64,000 nt of DNA from an uncultured Thermococci archaeon (GTDB lineage: Archaea > CAYQAE01 > CAYVLA01), in assembly GCA_964549615.1 (NCBI GenBank), contig CAZJVP010000076.1:1-64000 (forward strand), written 5' to 3'. The notes under the pieces were generated by a model that was not told the origin of the DNA, searched no databases, and worked only from the letters and a program-made list of their open reading frames with translations. Positions 42,536-64,000 of the stretch are shown one piece after another (the stretch's first letter is position 1; each line of letters opens with the position of its first letter). Both the position numbers and the translations under genes were made by a program.

Positions 42536-43577
42536 TGCGTTATCCGAAATTTATTTCCGCCCCCTGTTTGGGCCGGGTCGGTGGTCAAGCTAACCGACTC
42601 AAGGATTCGATGGATCATACGCCAGAAAGAGAAGGGAGAGATGACCGAGAAGAAGATCGCAGCTGTCTACGGCATCACCACAAGAAGACTACGACAACTA
42701 TGGACCCAGTACAGATCCACCGGACAGATGCCCACCCTATCCCAGCCAGGCAGGCCCACAACACCACGGGATCCCGGGGAAGAAGACCTGGTCCTGGAGG
42801 CGTACAAGAAGCACCACGTCTGCGCGGTTGTACTGGAACACCTCATCCAGAAGGATCACTCCACAAGGATTCCGCACAACCGGATCCACACAATCCTGAT
42901 CAAACATGGCTACGCCAAGAAGACCCCCCGCAAACAGAGAAAGCGCAGATGGGTCAGATACGAGAGAAAGCACTCCATGTCGCTCTGGCATCTTGACTGG
43001 TTTGCCCTTGGCAAGATCGCTCCATCCCTAGGGAGGTGGCTTCTGGTCGTGCAGGACGATGCGTCCAGGAGGGTTATGGGGTTTGGCGTCTTTGACCAGC
43101 CCACCGCTGCGGGCAGCGTCAAGGTGCTTGAGGATGCTATAGGGATGCATGGTGACCCGGATTCCGTGATCACGGATAAGGGTACACAGTTCTACGCTGT
43201 TGAGAGTGATGGTAGAAAGAAGGGTTTCAACGAGTTCGAGCTCTTCCTCCAGGTGCACGGCATCAGCCATATCCTGGCTAGGACCAGTCATCCCCAGACC
43301 AATGGCAAGATCGAGCGCTTCTTCCAGACCTTGGCAAGCCAGATGGATCACTACTCGTCTCTTGACGGTCTTGTTGAGTGGTATAATACTCGGAGGCCCC
43401 ATATGAGTCTGGGCATGGTCACACCTGAGGAGGCTTTCTGGCGCAGGCTGGGAGCTGAGAGGGTTCTCGGGAGGGCCAGCCATCTACTTTACCGGGAACT
43501 GGAACCTGCCGCGAAGTGACCTAGATGACCCACAAAAAGCACGCCCAGAAAAGAGGAAATAATTATGGGATAACACA
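42536..43577 (+). mobile_element. IS481-family insertion sequence (1042 bp)
   Basis: 23-bp imperfect terminal IRs (TGCGTTATCCGAAATTTATTTCC at 42536-42558; reverse complement of 43555-43577 is TGTGTTATCCCATAATTATTTCC), 15-bp flanking direct repeat, single DDE transposase. Confidence 0.92.
42581..43519 (+). CDS. IS481-family DDE transposase
   Basis: N-terminal HTH; RYER.HSMSLWHLD, DDASR, TDKGTQF, HPQTNGKIERF, WYN..RPHMSL...TP. Confidence 0.93.
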   Translation: MVKLTDSRIRWIIRQKEKGEMTEKKIAAVYGITTRRLRQLWTQYRSTGQMPTLSQPGRPTTPRDPGEEDLVLEAYKKHHVCAVVLEHLIQKDHSTRIPHNRIHTILIKHGYAKKTPRKQRKRRWVRYERKHSMSLWHLDWFALGKIAPSLGRWLLVVQDDASRRVMGFGVFDQPTAAGSVKVLEDAIGMHGDPDSVITDKGTQFYAVESDGRKKGFNEFELFLQVHGISHILARTSHPQTNGKIERFFQTLASQMDHYSSLDGLVEWYNTRRPHMSLGMVTPEEAFWRRLGAERVLGRASHLLYRELEPAAK

Positions 43578-52281: not shown

Positions 52282-53409
52282 CTAGAGGCACATCCCGATT
52301 CTCATGTTCTCCAACTCGCCCTCATCAACGGTGATTCCCAGCCCGGGGCGATCCGGGACGTCGACATGCGCGCCCTCGACCCTGATGCCATCCGCTAGGA
52401 GGGTCGACAAAAACTGCGGCCCGTTCGTGTCGACGGGCAGCGCCATCGGGAGCGTGGAGAAGACGTGCACAGACGCTGCTAGCCCCACGCCGGTCTCCGT
52501 CATGCCGCTGCCCAGGACCTGGATGCCTGCCGACTCGGCGAGGGTGGCGATCTTCTGCGTCCCCAGTATCCCGGACTTGGCGATCTTCAGCACAACCATG
52601 TCGCCCGCATTCATCGTTATGACCCTCAACATGTCGTAATGGGTGAAGACCGACTCATCGACGGCGATGGGGATCGAGCTTATGGCTGATGTCCTCTGGA
52701 GGCCCAAGTAGTCGTAGGTTGGCACCGGCTGCTCGAGACAGACGATGTTCGCAAGGTCGCCTATGAGGGCCAGGAGCCGTCGCAAGGTCGAAGCGTCGTA
52801 CGCCTGGTTAGCATCTGCCCAGATCCGCGCCTTCCCCGCTGCTTCCGAGAGGCATCTCAGTCTATCCGCATCGAGATCCGGCTTGCCCGATATTTTGATC
52901 TTGAAGCAGGTGTACCCCTTCCTCCTTGCCGACCTTGCGCGCCTGGCAAGCGCCTCGACATCACCTGACACCATGTAGCACAGCTCAAGCTTGTCGGTGA
53001 GGCGGCCTCCCAAGATCCTGTGGAGAGGAAGGCCGGATTCCTTGCCGAGGATGTCGAAGAGCGCCTGCTCGACCGCGGATACTGCGAAAGGCTGGCTTGC
53101 GCTGACGGAAGGCGTAATCGAGGAATCGATCTTTGACCTGATCGACCTAACGGAGGAGCAGTCCTCGCGCAGGAGGATCGGCGCGATGTGGTTCTTGAGG
53201 GTCGAGCAGACAGTCTCCATCGTCTCGTAGCTCCAGGTGGGGTTTGGCCTTGACTCGCCCCAACCGGTCTCGCCGTCGGAGGTGGTGAGCTTCAGGTAGA
53301 CGTGCTGCCCAGGCTTGCCGGGCCCGCCCACGAATCCGCGCGAAAGGAGAAAGGGCTCGCGAAACGGTATCTCGACGGGGAAGATCTCGACGCTCGTGAT
53401 CTTTGTCAT
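52282..53409 (-). CDS. Mandelate racemase/muconate cycloisomerase (enolase superfamily) enzyme
   Basis: GWGE, FKIK, ADANQ, LEQP, AVDES, LK.AK.G, GSG; start trimmed to ATG 53409. Confidence 0.88.
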   Translation of the reverse strand: MTKITSVEIFPVEIPFREPFLLSRGFVGGPGKPGQHVYLKLTTSDGETGWGESRPNPTWSYETMETVCSTLKNHIAPILLREDCSSVRSIRSKIDSSITPSVSASQPFAVSAVEQALFDILGKESGLPLHRILGGRLTDKLELCYMVSGDVEALARRARSARRKGYTCFKIKISGKPDLDADRLRCLSEAAGKARIWADANQAYDASTLRRLLALIGDLANIVCLEQPVPTYDYLGLQRTSAISSIPIAVDESVFTHYDMLRVITMNAGDMVVLKIAKSGILGTQKIATLAESAGIQVLGSGMTETGVGLAASVHVFSTLPMALPVDTNGPQFLSTLLADGIRVEGAHVDVPDRPGLGITVDEGELENMRIGMCL

Positions 53410-53471
53410 GGGCCCTCTTGGATCGGAAGAGTTCTGAAAAGTATTTCCCGAGGTCGTCGTGGGAACGGAGG

Positions 53472-53490
53472 GAAAAAAGAAAGAGGAGAT
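53472..53490 (-). terminator. T-rich terminator after the FG-GAP gene
   Basis: Minus strand TCTCCTCTTTCTTTTTTC just downstream of the 53501 stop. Confidence 0.5.
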
Positions 53491-53500
53491 ATGAGGGGTT

Positions 53501-54973
53501 CTACCGCGCGATCTTGCGGGTGGCTGCAAGGAGCCCGAATGCTGCTAGGGGCAGGATGGCGCCCTCGATTATGGGGATCACTGCCACGTTGCCCATGGTG
53601 TTGTAGCCTCTCGGCCAGATCATGTTGTTCGCGTTGTACGCCCCGCCCGCCGTGAAGCAGTAGACGACGGTATCCTCGGAGCAGACGAACGCCCACTCGA
53701 CCTTGCCGTCGCCATCGAAGTCTCCCATTATCTGCTTGACATCGCCCGGGCCCCACAACGGCGCACCGACCGTGGGGTCCACTGGTATGTTCGGGTTAAC
53801 CCAGAGTTGGTCCCATGCGTACTCGATGCTACCCTTCGAGTCTATCGAGAAGATCAGCGTCGTCGCCCTGCCGCCGACAACGTCCATCTTTCCGTCGCCG
53901 GTGAAGTCACCGATCAGCGAGGTGAAGGCGATCGCTGGGGCCGTCCACTTCTTCTTTCCATTGTAGTCCAGACAGTAGAGGTGAAGGGCCAGACCTGTTG
54001 GTCCGATGCCCACGTCAGAGACGAAGACCTCAAGGAACCCATCGCCATCGATGTCCCCGATGGACGGGCTCTCCGAAGCCCAGCCCGTCATCGCGGCGGT
54101 GGGGTCCAGGCTGAAAGTCCATTTCTCGGTTCCAAAGAAAGTAAGGCAGTATAGCTTGAGCTCGTCTGGCACCATAACTAGGATCTCGTACTCGCCGTCC
54201 TTGTCGATGTCGCCAACCGCTGCGGTCGATTGCCCGGGCTTGTTGCCGAAATTGAAGCGCCATTTCTCAACCCCGGAGCTGGTCAAGCAGTAGATCATCT
54301 TTCCGTTCTGGCACGGGATCAGGATCTCAACCTCGCCGTCCTTGTCGACGTCCCATGCGGTGGGCCCACTGTTCGTGCCTTCAGCCATCTGGAACCTCCA
54401 CTTCTCGCGGCCGTCGTGGCTGAGGACGTAGAGCCAGCCAACGCCCCCTGTTGCGAAGATTACCTCCTTCTTGCCGTCACCATCGATGTCAAAGATCGTC
54501 GGGCTGTTGTCCGAGCCTGCCTCAGGGGTGAACTGCCACTTGAGCTGGGGCCTGCCCCCGATAACGTTGAAACAGTGCACCCAGTTGTTCCTGCCTATGG
54601 CGACAACCTCGAGCTTCCCGTCGCCGTCCAAGTCATCTATCGCCGGGACACACATTGGGTCGCCAGGAAGGTTGTCCTTGTCGGGCGGGGGATAGATCCA
54701 CTGGATCGCACCCGTCTTCCCGCTCAGGCAGACCAGCCTGTCGGTCATCTGCTGGAGGCCCTTTCTCCTGCAGAGGAGGATATCAACCGTTCCGTCGCCG
54801 TCGATGTCAGCGTAGTTCATCCCACCGAGAACGCTCTCGTACAGGCCCGTCTGGGCTGTCACGTTCGAAGCCCATTTTAGTGTGAGGCGCTTCTGCGCGT
54901 ATGCGCTTGTCGCTAGAGACACTGCGGCTAGAACCACAACTAGAGAGTACTTGAGGGCCGTTTTCACGCCCAC
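53501..54973 (-). CDS. Secreted FG-GAP/VCBS beta-propeller protein with C-terminal membrane anchor
   Basis: Signal peptide; eight D(I/L/V/F)xxDG motifs with G..KW.F blades; C-terminus IPIIEGAILPLAAFGLLAATRKIAR. Confidence 0.8.
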   Translation of the reverse strand: MGVKTALKYSLVVVLAAVSLATSAYAQKRLTLKWASNVTAQTGLYESVLGGMNYADIDGDGTVDILLCRRKGLQQMTDRLVCLSGKTGAIQWIYPPPDKDNLPGDPMCVPAIDDLDGDGKLEVVAIGRNNWVHCFNVIGGRPQLKWQFTPEAGSDNSPTIFDIDGDGKKEVIFATGGVGWLYVLSHDGREKWRFQMAEGTNSGPTAWDVDKDGEVEILIPCQNGKMIYCLTSSGVEKWRFNFGNKPGQSTAAVGDIDKDGEYEILVMVPDELKLYCLTFFGTEKWTFSLDPTAAMTGWASESPSIGDIDGDGFLEVFVSDVGIGPTGLALHLYCLDYNGKKKWTAPAIAFTSLIGDFTGDGKMDVVGGRATTLIFSIDSKGSIEYAWDQLWVNPNIPVDPTVGAPLWGPGDVKQIMGDFDGDGKVEWAFVCSEDTVVYCFTAGGAYNANNMIWPRGYNTMGNVAVIPIIEGAILPLAAFGLLAATRKIAR

Positions 54974-57088: not shown

Positions 57089-57658
57089 CTAGATGACCGT
57101 GGTCTCTCCGCATTTCTGACAGACGACCTTGGATCCGCGGCTGACCTTTTTTGCCTGTTGCACATCGAGAATCCGATTGCCGCATCTGCAGACGTAGCCG
57201 GCTAGCCGCGCGGGGTTCCCGACGACTAGGGCATGCGGCGGAACGTCGCGGGTGATCACGGATCCAGCCCCAGCCATGGAGTATTCCCCAACGGTCACGC
57301 CGCAGATCACCGTGCAGTTGGCACCGATGGATGCGCCCCGCTTCACCAACGTCGGCACTATCACCCATTGCCGCGAAAAGGCCCTTGGGTACTTGTCGTT
57401 AGTGAAGACGACATGGGGCCCGATGAACACGTCGTCCTCAACGGTGACGCCCCTGAAGATCGATGCCCTGTTTTCGATCTTAACCCCGCTGCCGATGCGC
57501 ACATCGGCGTCCACGTAGGCGCACTTGCCCAGTATGCAGTTCCGCCCGATGACGGCACCCTCGCGCACCTGCGCGTGGTGCCAGATCTTGGTCCCCTCCC
57601 CGATCTTTGCCTTCTCGGATACGACGGCAGTCGGGTGGGCAAAATAGGGTTCACTCAA
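57089..57658 (-). CDS. Hexapeptide-repeat N-acetyltransferase (WbpD/WlbB-like)
   Basis: AHPTA.V, IG.GTKIWH, VFIGP..VFTND, GASIGAN, VVGNPAR..G.VC.CG, C-terminal CQKC. Confidence 0.85.
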   Translation of the reverse strand: MSEPYFAHPTAVVSEKAKIGEGTKIWHHAQVREGAVIGRNCILGKCAYVDADVRIGSGVKIENRASIFRGVTVEDDVFIGPHVVFTNDKYPRAFSRQWVIVPTLVKRGASIGANCTVICGVTVGEYSMAGAGSVITRDVPPHALVVGNPARLAGYVCRCGNRILDVQQAKKVSRGSKVVCQKCGETTVI

Positions 57659-58494
57659 GCCAAAGCCTCCCGAGAAGCGGCCTTGAAAGCTGCCTCAGCA
57701 TCCTCGCCCTGATGCACGATCCGTCTCAGCGCGCGAGCCAGCAAGGCCGGATACCTGTCCAAGAGGAGATTGCGACCGATGACAAGGCCGGAGCCCCCGT
57801 CGCAGATGGCATCGTGGCTGCGCTCCAGGAAGTCCTTGACGGACACCTTCTTTCCACCAAGCACGAGCACCCGGGCATTGACCGACCGTACGATATCCCG
57901 GAAGCTCCTCCGGCGCGATGACCTTGACCGCCCGTCCGGATACGGGATCTTCAAGGCCGGCACGGAGAAGTCGGCCGCCACTATTGCAGCATAGCGTATC
58001 CTATCCGGGCGGGAGTCGACCTTCAGCTTTCCGCCGACCCGGACGCAGTAAAGCGGCTCCAGGACGAGGGGTAGGTCCCATTTCTCACAGACCTCGCAGA
58101 TCTCGCCGCACATCTCAAGTTGGCGAGAGGTTTCCGGGCTCGTCGGATCGATCCTGAGCAAGAGCTTTGCCCCGTCCAGACCCCAGCGGACGGCCGTCTG
58201 AGGTCGTGCGACAAGCCTGTCGTCCCATTCGAATGCAGACTGGGAAAGCCCGGTGCGGTTGAGGGAAAGCAGTAGCGCCTTCCGAGGTAGTTCCTTGGGC
58301 CATGAGGTTATCAGGTGGCGCATCGGCTCCTTGGTGGCGATCAGCCCATCTGCGAAGGGCAGGACGGAGAAGAGCGTCGAGGCTAAGCGCGAGAAGTCGG
58401 TCAGGCCTTCTTGGACGCCCCGCTGGCGATGGTCCGCGGCAACTATCAGCGTCCTGCCGTCGGTCCCGAAGATCCTAGACATGCGGTTGACCAT
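57655..58494 (-). CDS. Class I aldolase (LacD/YihT/IolJ-like)
   Basis: IVAADHR, G.DGAKLLL, LPLVLEPL, LKIPY, VLGG, IGRN. Confidence 0.75.
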   Translation of the reverse strand: MVNRMSRIFGTDGRTLIVAADHRQRGVQEGLTDFSRLASTLFSVLPFADGLIATKEPMRHLITSWPKELPRKALLLSLNRTGLSQSAFEWDDRLVARPQTAVRWGLDGAKLLLRIDPTSPETSRQLEMCGEICEVCEKWDLPLVLEPLYCVRVGGKLKVDSRPDRIRYAAIVAADFSVPALKIPYPDGRSRSSRRRSFRDIVRSVNARVLVLGGKKVSVKDFLERSHDAICDGGSGLVIGRNLLLDRYPALLARALRRIVHQGEDAEAAFKAASREALA

Positions 58495-58539
58495 GCCCGC
58501 GCGATGGTCCCAGGGGTCCTCTGGCTCCTTCAGAATGGA

Positions 58540-60132
58540 TCACGTCTCAAGGTTTCTGGATTCTCCGTAGAGCTCGTAGAAGTCCGGATAGATCGTCGCC
58601 ATCTTCTCGTAGACGGCTTTGAAGAGCGCGTATCCCTTCCTGTAGACGGCTGCATTCCTTGGGTCCGGATTCACCGTTTGCTTCTTCGGCAGCCACGAGT
58701 GGATGGCTTCTGGCCTGACCTCCTTCACGCCCACGGCACCGATCAGCGCGTCCCCGTACGGCGTGCCTGGGAACTCGGCCATGAAATCAATGCTCGTCTC
58801 CAGCACGTCCGCTAGGATGGATCTCCAGACCGGGGACTTGCTCCCACCGTCCACGAGGAGGGTGGGTTTGTCGAGGGTAACGCCCGACTGGACGGCCTGC
58901 TCCACGTTCCACTTGTGAAGGTAAGCCGCCCCCTCCAGCACGGACCTGTAGATGGCTCCCGTGTCGTGAAGGTGTCTGAGGCCGAAGAAACCTCCGGTCG
59001 CAGCCGTGTTCCAGATCGGCGTTCTCTCGCCCATGAGGAAGGGATGGAAGATGATCCCAAGGCTGCCCGGTGGGACCTTTGCAGCCAACTCGTCGAGCTC
59101 CTTGGGCTTCAGGCGTCCGCCGAGGTTCGTCCGGAACCACGGATCGACCGCGCCGCCGGGGTAGGCACCGCCGCCAAAGGAGTAGATGAGGTCCCTTGAT
59201 CTCACGGCGTGCGGGTAGTTGATCAGCCTCTTGGCGAAGGATGCCTTTGCAGGGTCCTGAAGGATGCCCCAGCACCAGCTGGTTCCAGTCATCAGGCCGT
59301 TGAACCCGGACTCCACGCCACCAGTGGCCACGAGCGAGACTGGCGCATCTATCCCGCTCGCCACAACCGGGGTCCCTGGACGGACGCCGATGGCCTTGGC
59401 AGCCTCCGGCAAGACCTCGCCGACGACCTCGTCCGAGGAAACCAGCTCGCCGAAGATCTCGGGGTGAAGGTCGATGTCCTTGAACTCGGCTGACACCCTC
59501 TTGCGAGCCGATCTCGTGAGCATGGATAGGACCTCCTCGGATATCTTGTACTTCCGTATGTCGAAGACCCCTGCGAAGTTGCCCATCGAGCAGTAGTCGG
59601 TGACGACCCTCCCGGTGAGCTTCTCGATGACGTAGCCATTCGGGGTGACGAGGTGCTTGGTCTTCTTGAAGAGACGCGGCTCGTTGACCATGAACCAGAA
59701 CATCTTAGTGTAACCGTAGTAGGAGTGGATGGTGTAGTTCCCGGAGACCCCGCCGAACACCTCCTCGCCTATCTCCTCCCTGAGGATGTCGCACTCCCGG
59801 AAGGCCCTTTGGTCCAACCATATCATGCACGGCCTTATGGGCCTCATCTCCGCGTCGACCGGGATGCCCGATCCGCCGTAGAGCCCGGAGAAGCATACGG
59901 CGCCGATGTCCTTGGGGTCGAGGCGGGACTTCTTGATCGCTTGTGTGGATGTGGACTTGACGGCCTCCCACCATGGGTCTGGCCATTGCTCGGCCCCGTT
60001 TGGGTGCTCCTTTGGAACCGTGAATCCCGGCTTGTAGTCCACGGAGCTTTCAGCCACTATTCTGCCCGATCCAACATCGACGATGATGGTCTTTGTGCTC
60101 CCGGTGCCGATGTCACCCGCAAGGACGAACAT
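58540..60132 (-). CDS. FGGY-family carbohydrate kinase (xylulokinase-like)
   Basis: GDIGTGSTK, AEQ.P..WW, IWLDQRA, SGID, GTS, GERTP.W, LEG, DGG.KS; start trimmed to ATG 60132. Confidence 0.9.
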   Translation of the reverse strand: MFVLAGDIGTGSTKTIIVDVGSGRIVAESSVDYKPGFTVPKEHPNGAEQWPDPWWEAVKSTSTQAIKKSRLDPKDIGAVCFSGLYGGSGIPVDAEMRPIRPCMIWLDQRAFRECDILREEIGEEVFGGVSGNYTIHSYYGYTKMFWFMVNEPRLFKKTKHLVTPNGYVIEKLTGRVVTDYCSMGNFAGVFDIRKYKISEEVLSMLTRSARKRVSAEFKDIDLHPEIFGELVSSDEVVGEVLPEAAKAIGVRPGTPVVASGIDAPVSLVATGGVESGFNGLMTGTSWCWGILQDPAKASFAKRLINYPHAVRSRDLIYSFGGGAYPGGAVDPWFRTNLGGRLKPKELDELAAKVPPGSLGIIFHPFLMGERTPIWNTAATGGFFGLRHLHDTGAIYRSVLEGAAYLHKWNVEQAVQSGVTLDKPTLLVDGGSKSPVWRSILADVLETSIDFMAEFPGTPYGDALIGAVGVKEVRPEAIHSWLPKKQTVNPDPRNAAVYRKGYALFKAVYEKMATIYPDFYELYGESRNLET

Positions 60133-60471
60133 TTCGCACCCACCCGGCGGTAAGGACGTTTTGAACTCCAAAGACGGGATAAAAGTCTTTCTCGGTGCGT
60201 CTGGCAGCGTGGAAACTCCCTTCCGCGTGCACCGAGGTCCATCCGCCACCGTGCGGGCGATTATGTTTCGCTGGAGCTCCTTGCCCTCTGGCCGTTGCAG
60301 GCGGACCTTGGAGTTCAGCGCGGAGCCTTCGACGGCTGGCTGCGAGTCTCCCGGCGTTCAGGGGGACCTGCGTCCGGAGTCCCTCACGGCACGTGCAGCG
60401 CCCCATTCGCCCATCACGGACCAGGACAAGCTAAGAGTTAAGAGAAACTCCTGCAGGAGGCGGGGCGGTCG

Positions 60472-61269
60472 ATGGATTTGTCCTCCCAGATGGGAAAGGA
60501 GATTCGCCTGTCCAAGTTCCTGGACCCGTCGGGCCGTGCGGCGATCGTTGTGAAGGCCGATCAGGGTCTTGCGCTGGGGCCAGTGCCCGGGTTGGAGGAA
60601 ATGGCGTCTGGCCTCGGGGCAATCGTCTCGGCCGGGGTCGACGCCGTCATCCTCAGCCCGGGCCAGGCTGCGAAGCAGGCCCATCTCTTCAAGGGAAGGC
60701 GGGCGCCCGCGCTCCTTGTTAGGTCAGACTGGTCAAACGTCGCAAGAACCCAGTCCTTCCCTCTGCCCTGGAAAAGGATGACCCACGTGGCGGTCGCTGG
60801 GGCAAAGCATGCCGCGTTCCTCGGAGCGCATGGGTTAGTTGCCAGCTTCTACGTCGGATACAAGGATGACGAGGATGAGGCGGACAACCTTCAGTCCGTC
60901 TCACAGCTGGCTGCCGAGTGCTTACAGTACGGCCTCCCGCTTCTGGTGGAGGCGCTGCCTCTTGGCGAGCGCATCACGGAGCAGAACTACCTTGACTCGC
61001 TCAAGATGGCCGGAAGGATGTCGCTCGAGGTCGGGGCGGACGGGATCATCGTGCCGTATGCAGGATCGGAGCGCTCGATGCGCGATGTTGTGGAAGCTGC
61101 CGGAGCCGCGCCGGTGCTTCTTTTGCTTTCTGGCGTGAAGGATGGAGAGGGGATCTCGGAGTCGGTGAGGGCCGGGGTCAAGGGGGTCGTGATCGAGGCC
61201 ACGGGGCTAGGGGAAGACGTAGGACCCTCGATCGCGGGCCTCTCGCGGCTTCTCGGCCGGGGTGGGTAG
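60472..61269 (+). CDS. DhnA-type class I aldolase paralog lacking the Schiff-base lysine
   Basis: GKEIRLS, ADQG, LSPG, RSDW, GADGIIVPY (no Lys), no GRN motif. Confidence 0.75.
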   Translation: MDLSSQMGKEIRLSKFLDPSGRAAIVVKADQGLALGPVPGLEEMASGLGAIVSAGVDAVILSPGQAAKQAHLFKGRRAPALLVRSDWSNVARTQSFPLPWKRMTHVAVAGAKHAAFLGAHGLVASFYVGYKDDEDEADNLQSVSQLAAECLQYGLPLLVEALPLGERITEQNYLDSLKMAGRMSLEVGADGIIVPYAGSERSMRDVVEAAGAAPVLLLLSGVKDGEGISESVRAGVKGVVIEATGLGEDVGPSIAGLSRLLGRGG

Positions 61270-61271
61270 AC

Positions 61272-62504
61272 TTGATGACCGGTCCGGGGAAGGAGATACG
61301 GCTCAGCAGGATCATCGATCCCGGCGACGGCCGCGCGGTCGTGATCGCGGCTGACCATGGCTACATGCTGGGTCCCATAAGCGGGGTGGTGGATCTTGCG
61401 AAGACCATCGAGTCCGTTGCGGGAGGCGGCGCGGACGGCATACTGGTGAGCCCCGGCCAGGCGGCCCGGATAGGGTACCTGTTCAAAGGCAGGGATCGGC
61501 CAGCGATGCTTGTGAGAGCGGATTGGACTAACGCCTTCAGGACGAAGACCTACACCCTTCCGTCAAGGCACGTGCAGCACAGGTACATGACCTCGCCCAG
61601 CGAGGCACTTGCGTTGGGGGCAGACGCCATCGTGATATACTTCTTCGTCGGCTATGCGGATGACAGGGAGGAAGCCGAGCATGTGTCAAGGGTCGCCAGA
61701 TATGCGAGGGAGTGCGAGGAGATCGGGCTCCCCCTGATAGTTGAGCCGATCCCGCTGGGCGAAAGGATAACCGGCGCCAACTACAATGAACTGGTTGGGA
61801 TATCTATCAGGATGTCTGCTGAGATAGGGGCAGATGCCATAAAGGCACCCTACACGAACGATGTGGAGATGTACAGGGAGATCGTAAGATCGGCTGGGAT
61901 TCCGATCCTTATCCTCGGAGGGGCCAAGTCCAAGACCCTGAGGGATGCCCTCGAGGTGGTGGAGGAGGCGCTGGAGTCGGGCGCCTGCGGTACAGTTTTC
62001 GGCCGGAACGTCGTGCAGGCCCCGGACCCTGGGGACATGGTGAGGAGGATATGCCAGGTCGTTCACGGTGGCAAGTCTGCGAGGGAGGTTACACGGCCGG
62101 TGGCCGTCGGGCCGATGAGGTTGAAGGTCTCTCGCCCGCAAGATTGCACGGGCTGTCGGATGTGCGAGATTGCGTGCAGCGCAGCGCATGGACCAGGGTA
62201 CGACCTGGAGTCGGCGAGGCTGATCGTGCGCGCAACCAGCGATGGCTTTAGGCCAACGGTGTGCACCCAGTGTCTGAAGTGCCTGGAGGCCTGTCCGAGC
62301 AAAGCTCTTTCCGTCGACGAGAGGCTGGGCTTCGTGGCTTTGGACGCCTCCAGATGCGACGGCTGCGGGCTGTGCGCCCAGGCCTGTCCGGTGGGAGTGA
62401 TCAGGATGCGGGAGGGCAGGCCGCTATTGTGCGACCTCTGCGGGGGCATTCCCGAGTGCGAAGAGTGGTGCCCGAGGCAGGTCCTCAGCTCGGCGGGTGG
62501 GTGA
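61272..62504 (+). CDS. DhnA-type class I aldolase fused to 4x[4Fe-4S] ferredoxin domain
   Basis: ADHG, GADAIKAPY, LGG.K, FGRN; C-terminal CTGCRMCEIAC, CTQCLKCLEACP, CDGCGLCAQACP, CDLCGGIPECEEWCP. Confidence 0.88.
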   Translation: MMTGPGKEIRLSRIIDPGDGRAVVIAADHGYMLGPISGVVDLAKTIESVAGGGADGILVSPGQAARIGYLFKGRDRPAMLVRADWTNAFRTKTYTLPSRHVQHRYMTSPSEALALGADAIVIYFFVGYADDREEAEHVSRVARYARECEEIGLPLIVEPIPLGERITGANYNELVGISIRMSAEIGADAIKAPYTNDVEMYREIVRSAGIPILILGGAKSKTLRDALEVVEEALESGACGTVFGRNVVQAPDPGDMVRRICQVVHGGKSAREVTRPVAVGPMRLKVSRPQDCTGCRMCEIACSAAHGPGYDLESARLIVRATSDGFRPTVCTQCLKCLEACPSKALSVDERLGFVALDASRCDGCGLCAQACPVGVIRMREGRPLLCDLCGGIPECEEWCPRQVLSSAGG

Positions 62505-64000
62505 TGGTTATGCCGAACGACTGGTATGGCTTCATGGGCCGGTTGCTTGAGGCCGACCTTTCGAAGGGATCGTTTTCCCAACGCGAACTGGATCCCAGGG
62601 TGACGCGGTTGCTGCTTGGAGGAAAAGGCCTGGGGGCCTACCTGCTGTACAATGGCCTGAAGCCCAAGACCGACCCGCTTTCGCCCGACAACATGATCCT
62701 CTTTCTGACCGGCCCGCTCACCGGGACGATCGCGCCCGGAAGCAATCGGTTCTGCGTCGTCACCAAGAGCCCCCACACGGGAACATTCCTGGACTCCCAC
62801 TGTGGAGGTTCATTCGGACCGGCCTTGAAGTACGCTGGCTACGATGGCTTGATCGTCACCGGGAGGGCCGAGCAGCCATCCGTGTTGGTCGTTGACGGTG
62901 GCGGGCCGAGATTGATGCCCGCCGGCGAGCTTTGGGGGACGACCACAGCGGCGTGCCAAGACAAGCTTGACCGCCTGCTTGGGGAAGGATACGGAAAGGT
63001 CGTCATAGGTCCTGCGGGTGAGCGGCTCTCGACCATAGCCGGGGTCTACAGCGGGACGCGCGCGGCCGGGAGGGGCGGAGCGGGAGCCGTGATGGGATCC
63101 AAGAACCTCAAGGCCATCTGCGTGAGGGCTGGCTCTTACACCATACGTGTGGCCGATCCGGCCGAGATGAGGAGGGCGTGCTGGACGGCCCACCGCATGG
63201 TTCGAATGAGCGAGATCACGGTTCGTAGCCTGCCGATGGAGGGGACCTGCAACATACTGGAAACGGTGAACCAGGCGGGTGCCTTGCCAACTCGCAACTT
63301 TCAGACGGGCAGGTTTGAGTCGTCCGAGGCCTTGTCGGGCGCTAGATGGAGGGAGGAGGTGTGGATCCGCGACTCGGCCTGCTTCGGGTGCTCGATCGCG
63401 TGCAGCAAGATCTCCCGGATTCGGGAAGGGAGGTTCAGCGGCGATTCCACGGAGGGTCCTGACTACGAGACCGTCTGGGCCTTCGGGCCGCAGTGCGGAA
63501 ACTCCGACAAATCCTTGATAGTCCATTTGGAGAAGCTTTGCGACGACTACGGCATCGACACGATAAGCGCCGGGAACATCATCGGCTTCGTCATGGAGAT
63601 GTACGAGCGGGGGATGATTCGGCCCGAGGAGATCGGCGGGATGAGGCCGTCCTGGGGCGATGCGGAGGCGATGGTGGGGATGGTCGAAGCCATGGGGAGG
63701 ATGGACGAGCTGGGCTCGATGCTTTCGAGGGGGGTAAAGAGGCTCAGCGAGGAACACCCGGGTTCGGGCGCCTTTGCGATGCACGTCAAGGGCCTCGAGT
63801 TGCCCGCCTATGCTCCGAGGGCATCCAAGGGCATGGCGCTTGCCTACGCCACGTCGGATCGGGGCGGATGCCACCTGAGGGGATACCCGGCAATGCAGGA
63901 GCTCTTGGGCATGCGGGGCGGGGCCGATCCCTTGGAGACCAAAGGCAAGGCACAGCTGGTCATCGACAGCCAGGACGAGATCGCGGTCGTCGATTCCTGC
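62504..64000 (+). CDS. aor: Aldehyde:ferredoxin oxidoreductase family protein (3' end outside window)
   Basis: Hand translation: GFMGRLL..DLS, LGGKGLG, DPLSPDN, GPLTGT, KSP.TG, LK.AGYD, GRGG.GAVMGSKNLKA, C..C.I.C, GPDYET, DDYGID.IS, DRGGCH; ATG overlaps the upstream stop (TGATG). Confidence 0.92.
   Translation, partial: MVMPNDWYGFMGRLLEADLSKGSFSQRELDPRVTRLLLGGKGLGAYLLYNGLKPKTDPLSPDNMILFLTGPLTGTIAPGSNRFCVVTKSPHTGTFLDSHCGGSFGPALKYAGYDGLIVTGRAEQPSVLVVDGGGPRLMPAGELWGTTTAACQDKLDRLLGEGYGKVVIGPAGERLSTIAGVYSGTRAAGRGGAGAVMGSKNLKAICVRAGSYTIRVADPAEMRRACWTAHRMVRMSEITVRSLPMEGTCNILETVNQAGALPTRNFQTGRFESSEALSGARWREEVWIRDSACFGCSIACSKISRIREGRFSGDSTEGPDYETVWAFGPQCGNSDKSLIVHLEKLCDDYGIDTISAGNIIGFVMEMYERGMIRPEEIGGMRPSWGDAEAMVGMVEAMGRMDELGSMLSRGVKRLSEEHPGSGAFAMHVKGLELPAYAPRASKGMALAYATSDRGGCHLRGYPAMQELLGMRGGADPLETKGKAQLVIDSQDEIAVVDSC

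Follow-up and report, generated by a model that had tools for sequence, protein, structure and literature searches.

The aldolase-dehydrogenase pairs DmpFG and BphIJ, each composed of a class II pyruvate aldolase and an NAD- and CoA-dependent acylating dehydrogenase encoded without gene fusion, are known examples of aldolases that work together with an enzyme that oxidizes their aldehyde product. A different group of aldehyde-oxidizing enzymes is covered by a 2026 classification of tungsten oxidoreductases (WORs; PMC13328260), the text of which describes class II WORs as consisting of a large subunit and a small subunit with four iron-sulfur (Fe-S) clusters and states that only two class II enzymes have been characterized; Caldicellulosiruptor bescii GOR (CbGOR), a class II WOR with a large and a small subunit, oxidizes glyceraldehyde 3-phosphate. 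According to the same text, a physiological role is known in only five of 92 tungsten oxidoreductase clades, and many aldehyde oxidoreductases (AORs) act as broad-range aldehyde detoxifiers (PMC13328260). Here we describe a locus from an uncultured Thermococci archaeon in which a DhnA-type aldolase is fused to a domain holding four [4Fe-4S] clusters, and in which this fusion gene is located between a gene for a Lys-less copy of the aldolase (hereafter the paralog or pseudo-aldolase) and a gene for an AOR-family large subunit. The locus is found at 57.6-64 kb of the 64,000-nucleotide stretch that was analyzed (hereafter the window), which represents positions 1-64000 of a 97.8-kb contig (CAZJVP010000076.1) in a genome assembly of 3.2 Mb and 104 contigs that is 99.5% complete.

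In full-text literature searches, neither a fusion nor a complex of an aldolase with an AOR was found to be described; the original prediction for this locus likewise knew of no described aldolase-AOR metabolon. The word "aldolase" is absent from the main text of the 2026 classification (PMC13328260), and the supplementary text (41,661 characters, outside of which stands a large neighborhood table) contains neither "aldolase" nor DeoC identifiers. The module formed by the paralog, the fusion, and the AOR can be described as a class II tungsten-type oxidoreductase into which a putative substrate-generating enzyme is built. As this gene architecture names a likely source of the aldehyde (i.e., the tethered aldolase), the natural substrate of one oxidoreductase clade becomes directly testable.

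Distribution of the fusion and of the three-gene unit

A search of 5.8 billion clustered proteins with the fusion as query identified 255 relatives at E <= 1e-10, the best 120 of which were checked for their domains. Both DeoC and Fer4 Pfam domains are present in 119 of these 120 clusters, with identities of 42-87% over approximately 98% of the length; the sole exception is a 281-aa protein (P0056). Source names of the clusters include Bathyarchaeia, Thermoproteota, Lokiarchaeota, Sigynarchaeota, Promethearchaeota, candidate division KSB1, and Zhuqueibacterota, and clustering at 50% leaves about five full-length fused representatives. Contigs representing one genome per species yielded 20 loci with the aldolase part of the fusion, most of them near full length and five cut or broken, from Bathyarchaeia, Hadarchaeota, Sigynarchaeum, Bacteroidota, Ignavibacteriales, Zhuqueibacterota, Chloroflexota, and Phycisphaerae, and a metagenome scan added 80 further fusion loci. 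The nearest named relative of the fusion gene is found in a Hadarchaeota metagenome-assembled genome (MAG; 73% identity), and the lineages that carry the module are known only from metagenomes. Within the window's phylum, five species genomes were examined; all four genomes of the window's family (including the genome that contains the window) carry the fusion beside the paralog, and the fused frame is open across both domains, with no stops, in three of these four; in the remaining genome (G003), the contig ends within the frame, at query residue 332. The phylum's other family is represented by a single genome, which has just an unfused homolog with 35% identity.

With regard to public sequencing runs, a 25-kb contig of one run covers positions 60400-63400 with zero differences, although this run may be the assembly's own source. 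Two other runs (X2 and X3, with shares of 0.12 and 0.09) provided only short pieces of relatives, none of which clearly bridges the junction between the aldolase and Fe-S domains, and are therefore uninformative on habitat as well as on the fusion. Related sequence in public runs derives from hot-spring metagenomes, and no RNA runs are among the public sequencing runs listed for this sequence. An assembly artefact, or a recent stop-codon loss, that joins two genes in this genome only was considered as an explanation, and nothing was found in its favor; the only contig spanning the whole stretch may come from the assembly's source. We consider the probability of this explanation to be practically negligible and have rejected it, as fused homologs of the same length occur in the 119 clusters mentioned above, which come from several sources and phyla, and fused homologs are also found in the 20 species genomes and the 80 metagenome contigs, as the fused frame is open in relatives of the window's family, and as the length of the short connector is conserved (24-26 residues separate His265 from the first Cys in all of 50 homologs). 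The architecture of the original prediction is thus widespread rather than an oddity of a single genome, and the fusion is best regarded as real, old, and conserved.

Conservation around the fusion was assessed in 101 loci (i.e., the window, the 20 genome loci, and the 80 metagenome loci) by tblastn with the window proteins as queries; a locus was considered to have room if it included at least 900 bp upstream (for the paralog count) or downstream (for the AOR count) of the fusion. Every locus with room upstream (92 of 92) contains a second DhnA-like gene that does not overlap the fusion, and in 84 of them this gene ends no more than 250 nt from the fusion; most of the other cases represent alignments that stop before the end of the gene, and in loci L006 and L127 the paralog is located after the AOR. 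An AOR gene was found in 78 of the 80 loci with room downstream, in 77 cases within 300 nt. By contrast, an FGGY kinase and a Cgl0159-like aldolase, which accompany the module in the window, occur together in just 8 of the 101 loci, all of which are close relatives of the window (80-100% identity in the aldolase part of the fusion). These counts indicate that the conserved unit comprises three genes, encoding the pseudo-aldolase, the fusion, and the AOR, and that the kinase and the second aldolase are companions specific to the window's archaeal lineage; the five-gene pathway put forward in the original prediction does not hold as the conserved unit.

Two further observations were made among these loci. 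The only AOR-less loci with room downstream (L142:8658-13470 and L143) have two minus-strand open reading frames (ORFs) of 256 and 502 aa in place of the AOR. In a Chloroflexia MAG (L023:9866-11384, on a 470-kb contig), a fusion-type aldolase is present in pieces and in different frames, representing either a decayed copy or frameshift errors, and no Fe-S domain or AOR was detected at this locus.

Aldolase barrel, paralog, and oxidoreductase subunits

In 50 of 50 homologs, the aldolase domain of the fusion keeps the Schiff-base Lys and the active-site Asp of class I DhnA-type aldolases along with their GG and GR phosphate loops. Lys191, which aligns with the Schiff-base Lys of solved relatives, is found in 100 of 100 fusions across loci, and D28, H29, K191, Y194, R82, D84, R90, Y123, E158, N170, G216, G217, R224, G244, and R245 are invariant in the 50 homologs. 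The closest solved matches, which cover the barrel only, are M. jannaschii ADH synthase (MJ0400; Foldseek TM to target of 0.87-0.88), LsrF, and archaeal fructose 1,6-bisphosphate (FBP) aldolase; Foldseek identified no solved chain covering both domains of the fusion (best query-normalized TM of 0.59). An AlphaFold2 model of the whole fusion shows a mean pLDDT of 90.7 and a pTM of 0.83 for both domains, with only the loop at residues 92-97 disordered.

The fused barrel differs from its solved relatives in one segment, which reads W-S-Y-P-R in T. tenax FBP aldolase, M-M-Y-P-R in MJ0400, and E-P-I-P-L in the fusion. At the Tyr position of this segment, 50 of 50 homologs carry I, L, M, or V, and the Arg is always replaced (by L, M, F, Y, V, or I); Tyr146 of the T. 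tenax enzyme, which belongs to this segment, serves as proton shuttle. Scores against NCBIfam models are all below the respective cut-offs, including 140.8 bits for archaeal FBP aldolase (cut-off 430), 175 bits for ADH synthase (cut-off 299.45; 202.1 versus 241 for a subfamily model), and 107.2 bits for LsrF (cut-off 297). In addition, the fused barrel carries a family-specific RADWTNAFR segment, which is common only to the paralog and a few unfused relatives, while one of the genome's four other DhnA/DeoC genes has the canonical M-Y-P-R-G motif. These features indicate that the fused barrel is a specialized aldolase and neither a canonical FBP aldolase nor an ADH synthase. Since the phosphate loops that hold dihydroxyacetone phosphate (DHAP) in solved relatives are intact, the donor would be of the DHAP type and the other half of the substrate would bear no phosphate, as would suit an AOR better than an enzyme of the GAPOR type. 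Four unfused aldolases of approximately 280 aa (P0152, P0155, P0156, and P0157) retain the RADWTNAFR and EPxP segments as well as the Lys; among these, P0152 (282 aa, 49-51% identity) is an unfused aldolase of the fusion's subfamily.

In the window, the paralog has Ile193 where the fusion has Lys191 and also lacks the His of the AADHG motif and the GGAK and GRN loops, in agreement with its original description as a "dead" DhnA paralog. Across loci, the Schiff-base Lys is found in 0 of 95 paralogs, which instead have Ala (46), Ile (32), Val (13), or, in one case each, Met, Cys, Ser, and Thr; six loci gave no call, four of them having no upstream sequence and two having alignments that fall short of the position. 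Similarly, the Lys is absent from all 32 paralogs in a curated alignment, in which decay also extends to the His and to both phosphate loops. The paralog retains many structural positions as well as an RxDWxNxxR segment that is common to the fusion and absent from canonical DhnA proteins. In an 88-row tree, 50 fusion barrels and 32 paralogs are each on one side of a branch with a support of 100, and the two clades group together, separate from the four further DhnA/DeoC genes of the genome (one outgroup row, OUT_L088, is a wrong ORF with a very long branch inside the paralogs and is to be ignored); the paralog thus arose by duplication of the specialized aldolase. These data indicate that the upstream paralog is a conserved pseudoenzyme without the Schiff-base Lys. 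In another genome of the window's family (G004:C5:16593-17369, minus strand), the pseudo-aldolase shows one in-frame TAA, caused by an error in the assembly or by decay of this copy.

Prediction of a complex between the full fusion and the paralog yielded a score of 0.55, as compared to 0.00 for the best of three controls, with runs that agree in at least 96% of contacts and a partner pLDDT of at least 88. Among 80 solved complexes, 58 passed the mark used for this score, as did 2 of 110 mismatched pairs; scores at 0.60 or under account for only 7 of the 80 solved complexes and for both of the mismatches that passed. Co-folding thus gives weak support to a fusion-paralog heteromer.

The C-terminal approximately 125 aa of the fusion include 16 Cys in four CxxCxxCxxxC-type groups, which are invariant or nearly so in the 50 homologs. 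Fusion residues ~285-405 match the WOR5 small subunit (WOR5-S, 6x6u_B; 79 bits), AorA (8c0z_C; 64.5 bits), 9mqx_E (60.4 bits), and the BamC-like 4z3w_E, the small subunit of benzoyl-CoA reductase (43 bits), and all four of these subunits were solved together with an AOR-family large subunit. For the closest free-standing Fe-S relatives in the species genomes, an AOR-family gene is present at 50 of 60 loci and mostly adjoins the Fe-S gene. These findings support, by homology and gene order, the predicted role of the fused Fe-S domain as an AOR small subunit.

With regard to the large subunit, the nearest solved relative is P. furiosus AOR (1aor; 482 bits), followed by 9g7j, 9mqx_D, and AorB (407 bits), with FOR (302 bits) and WOR5 (247 bits) far behind. 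The residues that the text of the WOR classification names for aldehyde-oxidizing members (Thr243, Glu313, Tyr427, and His448 of PfAOR; PMC13328260) are identical in the alignment to 1aor, as are the four Cys of the [4Fe-4S] cluster (CxxCxxxC...C). From these residues, the AOR looks catalytically competent, and its metal would be tungsten or molybdenum. The NCBIfam model GAPOR_Arch scores 54.5 bits, against a cut-off of 1300, on the 500 aa of the AOR that are located in the window. No gene for a FAD subunit, no Tat signal, and no WorABC genes were found among the ORFs adjoining the AOR, and the arrangement is that of a class II WOR (i.e., an adjacent four-cluster small subunit and no extra subunits), from which it departs in the fusion of the small subunit to an aldolase. 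The phylogeny of 56 AORs from the fetched loci (with the AOR of locus L004 left out) groups the 15 fusion-linked AORs into one clade (SH-aLRT of 100), the nearest neighbors of which are AORs with ordinary free small subunits; this single clade suggests that the oxidoreductase, the fusion, and the paralog travelled together. The genome also carries four other AOR genes.

Gene layout and neighboring genes

The genes of the locus form two divergent groups, with a minus-strand aldolase and FGGY kinase and three plus-strand genes (Table 1), and all five were found where they had originally been placed.

Table 1. Features of the locus and of its surroundings, in window coordinates
Feature	Position	Strand	Length	Evidence or description
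Cgl0159-like / DeoC-family class I aldolase	57655-58494	(-)	279 aa	Pfam PF22649 83 bits; PF01791 (DeoC) 52.7 bits
FGGY-family carbohydrate kinase	58540-60249	(-)		FGGY_N 134.7 bits; FGGY_C 70.4 bits
DhnA-type pseudo-aldolase (paralog)	60472-61269	(+)	265 aa	Lys-less paralog of the fusion's aldolase domain
DhnA-Fer4 fusion	61272-62504	(+)	410 aa	DeoC 117.8 bits; Fer4 families (4Fe-4S dicluster domains)
Fusion, aldolase domain	61272-62120	(+)		DhnA-type TIM barrel
Fusion, WorS/AorA-like domain	62121-62504	(+)		Four [4Fe-4S] clusters, 16 Cys
AOR-family pyranopterin oxidoreductase (WorL)	62501 or 62504 to beyond 64000	(+)	618 aa	AFOR_N 233.4 bits and AFOR_C 303.8 bits (Pfam cut-offs 29.8 and 27), scored on the 500 aa inside the window
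Mandelate-racemase/enolase-superfamily gene	52282-53526	(-)		Possibly a sugar-acid dehydratase
Secreted FG-GAP beta-propeller gene	53501-54973	(-)
Integrase-core (rve) gene	42581-43516	(+)		Possibly a transposase

The kinase ORF opens at a GTG (60249), with ATG 60132 as its likely start. The TGATG overlap noted in the original prediction is borne out by the sequence, as the TGA of the fusion (62502-62504) overlaps an in-frame ATG of the AOR at 62504; the AOR gene itself passes the end of the window by 357 nt and ends at contig position 64357, with its first 500 residues in the window. A repeat scan of the divergent intergenic region gave just two short matches at chance level, and no sugar transporter or isomerase was seen upstream of 57 kb in the window. 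At a distance of ~4 kb from the module, the mandelate-racemase/enolase-superfamily gene overlaps the end of the FG-GAP beta-propeller gene, and the integrase-core gene is located among housekeeping genes.

The second aldolase of the window had been labeled LacD-like, which is a loose label, as the protein is best described as a Cgl0159-like (PF22649) member of the DeoC/LacD Pfam family. It retains the AADH, ALKIPY Lys, GG, and GRN motifs and is therefore probably active; all of its NCBIfam scores are far below cut-off, 42 database clusters contain it, and a full-text literature search on Cgl0159 found nothing relevant. In the FGGY kinase, both domains score above the Pfam cut-offs, and the best equivalog is XylB (264 bits, against a cut-off of 380.25).

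Neighboring genes were surveyed over 8 kb on each side of the module; 85 of the 101 fusions were recovered as intact ORFs (16 were left out) and were assigned to 45 groups at 85% identity, with one representative locus per group. Genes found in these 45 loci encode FGGY kinase (11 loci), xylose-isomerase-like TIM barrels in three clusters (10, 5, and 4 loci), LarA (8), PfkB kinase (7), UPF0261 (7), creatininase-like (6), TauE/SafE-like membrane (6), GlcD-like (6), GlcF-like (5), and DUF4432 (5) proteins, a D-lyxose-isomerase-like cupin (4 loci, with a partial match of 31.3 bits), and GH38 alpha-mannosidase (3); alpha-galactosidase is also among the glycosidases beside the module. One LarA scores 499.6, above the NCBIfam lactate-racemase cut-off of 460. 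Two types of co-directional operon are found in Chloroflexota-like loci; in one, GlcD-like, GlcF-like, epimerase-like, UPF0261, creatininase-like, and LarA genes precede the module and a TauE-like gene follows it, and in the other, GH38 and PfkB kinase genes precede the module and cupin and DUF4432 genes follow it. In Bathyarchaeia-like loci, an FGGY kinase is located after the AOR, and one of these kinases is barely at the XylB cut-off (384 versus 380.25). By their families, these neighbors point to sugar breakdown via a phosphorylated ketose.

Some bacterial loci (L007:13079-13753, L010:5178-5798, and L145:12799-13419) encode, immediately after the AOR, a hydrophobic protein of ~210 aa with no Pfam or NCBIfam match, two compared copies of which are 34% identical; in Chloroflexota-like loci, the TauE/SafE-like membrane protein takes its place. 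Both types of protein may be transporters for the substrate or product. Locus L159 encodes a CoA-acylating methylmalonate-semialdehyde dehydrogenase four genes past the AOR (L159:16379-17860; 548 bits, cut-off 448.5) as well as a PfkB kinase (L159:8002-9201), the best, though weak, match of which is IolC, an inositol-pathway kinase; this operon hints at an inositol-like route with malonate semialdehyde as the aldehyde.

Proposed reaction, alternatives, and known systems

The best reading of the module, which we regard as probable if not strongly so, is that a three-protein complex cleaves a phospho-ketose to DHAP and a non-phosphorylated aldehyde and that this aldehyde is oxidized by the AOR with reduction of ferredoxin. 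Such a complex would be composed of the AOR large subunit, the aldolase-bearing four-cluster small subunit, and the Lys-less aldolase copy, with the last joining the active barrel in a structural role, just as DhnA aldolases pair with one another; the presence of the pseudo-aldolase strengthens the case for a defined complex. A neighboring sugar kinase would provide a phosphorylated ketose or keto-sugar acid, which the aldolase domain would bind as a Schiff base on Lys191 and split into DHAP, which the conserved GG and GR loops would hold by its phosphate, and an aldehyde, candidates for which include D-glyceraldehyde, lactaldehyde, glycolaldehyde, and malonate semialdehyde. The AOR would then oxidize the aldehyde to the acid at its pterin center, with electrons reaching ferredoxin by way of the cluster within the AOR and the four of the fused domain, and aldehyde oxidation would pull aldol cleavage forward and keep free aldehyde low. 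The acid formed in this way would be either malonate or one of the 2-hydroxy acids glycerate, lactate, and glycolate, with no single substrate singled out.

A number of points weigh against this proposal. All members of the module are known from sequence and predicted structure alone; we infer complex formation, direction, channeling, and substrate, as well as, from homology and gene order, the binding of the Fe-S domain to this AOR. Since DhnA homo-oligomers have already been solved, the passing complex prediction may come from likeness and echo a memory of these structures. Aldolase chemistry is assumed rather than certain, because the Tyr proton shuttle of solved relatives is absent from the fused barrel. 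Two loci (L142 and L143, which have identical hits and probably represent one organism) have the fusion and the paralog and no AOR in the next 2.7-3.5 kb. In the window's lineage, a second and seemingly active aldolase beside the kinase is superfluous in a simple linear pathway. Furthermore, the kinases beside the module do not belong to one family, and at many loci no kinase is within reach; the substrate might be some common metabolite or vary from lineage to lineage. The neighbor counts are dominated by Chloroflexota-like loci that are related to one another and thus overstate independence.

The same complex could also operate in reverse, with reduced ferredoxin driving the reduction of an acid (e.g., lactate, glycolate, glycerate, acetate, or formate) by the AOR and with the tethered aldolase trapping the aldehyde with DHAP, which would represent a C-C bond-forming route to sugar phosphates. 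AOR enzymes are reversible and function in the acid-reducing direction in some anaerobes, a tight tether makes most sense where the aldehyde must stay very low, and LarA and GlcDF-like neighbors fit a hydroxy acid as substrate as well as product. We nevertheless consider reverse operation unlikely, as the kinases (FGGY in 11 and PfkB in 7 of the 45 loci), GH38, alpha-galactosidase, and the isomerase- and epimerase-like genes point to sugar breakdown and there is no evident use for the resulting deoxy- or pentulose-1-phosphates. An improbable elaboration is a ferredoxin-driven C-C bond-forming machine in which the Lys-less barrels build a ring that holds several AOR units; if true, anaerobic archaea and bacteria would have a route, previously unknown, that turns organic acids into sugar phosphates.

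It has to be considered, too, whether the two enzymes are a glycolytic pair, with the fused domain acting as an FBP aldolase and the AOR oxidizing glyceraldehyde 3-phosphate in the manner of GAPOR or of the two-subunit class II enzyme CbGOR (PMC13328260), as the closest solved aldolases bind or cleave FBP (MJ0400 with F1,6P, 2qjg; T. tenax aldolase, 1ojx). This assignment is quite unlikely given the change of W-S-Y-P-R to E-P-I-P-L, with a hydrophobic or aromatic residue at the Arg position in 50 of 50 homologs, the low scores against the FBP aldolase model (140.8 versus 430) and, on 500 aa, the GAPOR model (54.5 versus 1300), and the presence of four other DhnA/DeoC genes in the genome, one of which has the canonical M-Y-P-R-G; among solved relatives, the AOR is also closest to the broad-range P. 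furiosus AOR. A further explanation, in which the barrel and its dead copy supply no substrate and are a scaffold or sensor that assembles or regulates a general detoxifying AOR, would be in line with the fact that DhnA barrels form large rings in solved structures, which fits the many chains per PDB entry, and that one of the two barrels is certainly non-catalytic. The text of the WOR classification, in which many AORs are described as broad-range detoxifiers (PMC13328260), would also agree with such a role; we judge it to be very unlikely, however, as the catalytic Lys, the Asp-His pair, and both phosphate loops are invariant in 50 of 50 fusions from two domains of life and yet are lost in the paralog.

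If the cleaving and oxidizing complex that we favor forms, it would be the first aldolase-AOR assembly and a ferredoxin-linked counterpart of the NAD-linked aldolase-dehydrogenase channeling pairs, as well as an example of a conserved pseudoenzyme with a structural role. Sugar breakdown in Hadarchaeota-like archaea, Bathyarchaeia, Asgard archaea, Chloroflexota, and a number of candidate bacterial phyla would likewise gain a ferredoxin-yielding step of low potential.

Compared with known systems, the fused barrel is similar to DhnA-type class I aldolases, including MJ0400/ADH synthase (2qjg), T. tenax FBP aldolase (1ojx), and E. coli LsrF (3gkf), in its TIM barrel, Lys, Asp, and phosphate loops, and differs from them in that the Tyr-Pro-Arg segment is replaced, RADWTNAFR is added, and scores against curated models are below cut-off. 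The DmpFG and BphIJ pairs are alike in principle, in that an aldolase passes a reactive aldehyde straight to an oxidizing partner; these proteins and their chemistry are, however, unrelated to those described here and involve no ferredoxin, pterin, or pseudoenzyme. AorABC of Aromatoleum aromaticum (8c0z) has homologs of both parts of the module, i.e., an AOR large subunit (407 bits) and AorA (64.5 bits), whereas no gene for a FAD subunit (AorC) is found beside the module and AorA is without an aldolase domain. Finally, the class II WORs, as described in the text of the 2026 classification for P. furiosus WOR5/ASOR (6x6u and 6x1o) and C. bescii GOR (PMC13328260), share with the module the pterin-containing large subunit, the four-cluster small subunit, ferredoxin as carrier, and the absence of a FAD subunit; by contrast, the large subunit described here scores higher against P. 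furiosus AOR (482 bits) than against WOR5 (247 bits), and, in comparison with both WOR5 and GOR, its small subunit bears a 280-aa N-terminal aldolase, with the gene for a pseudo-aldolase always alongside.

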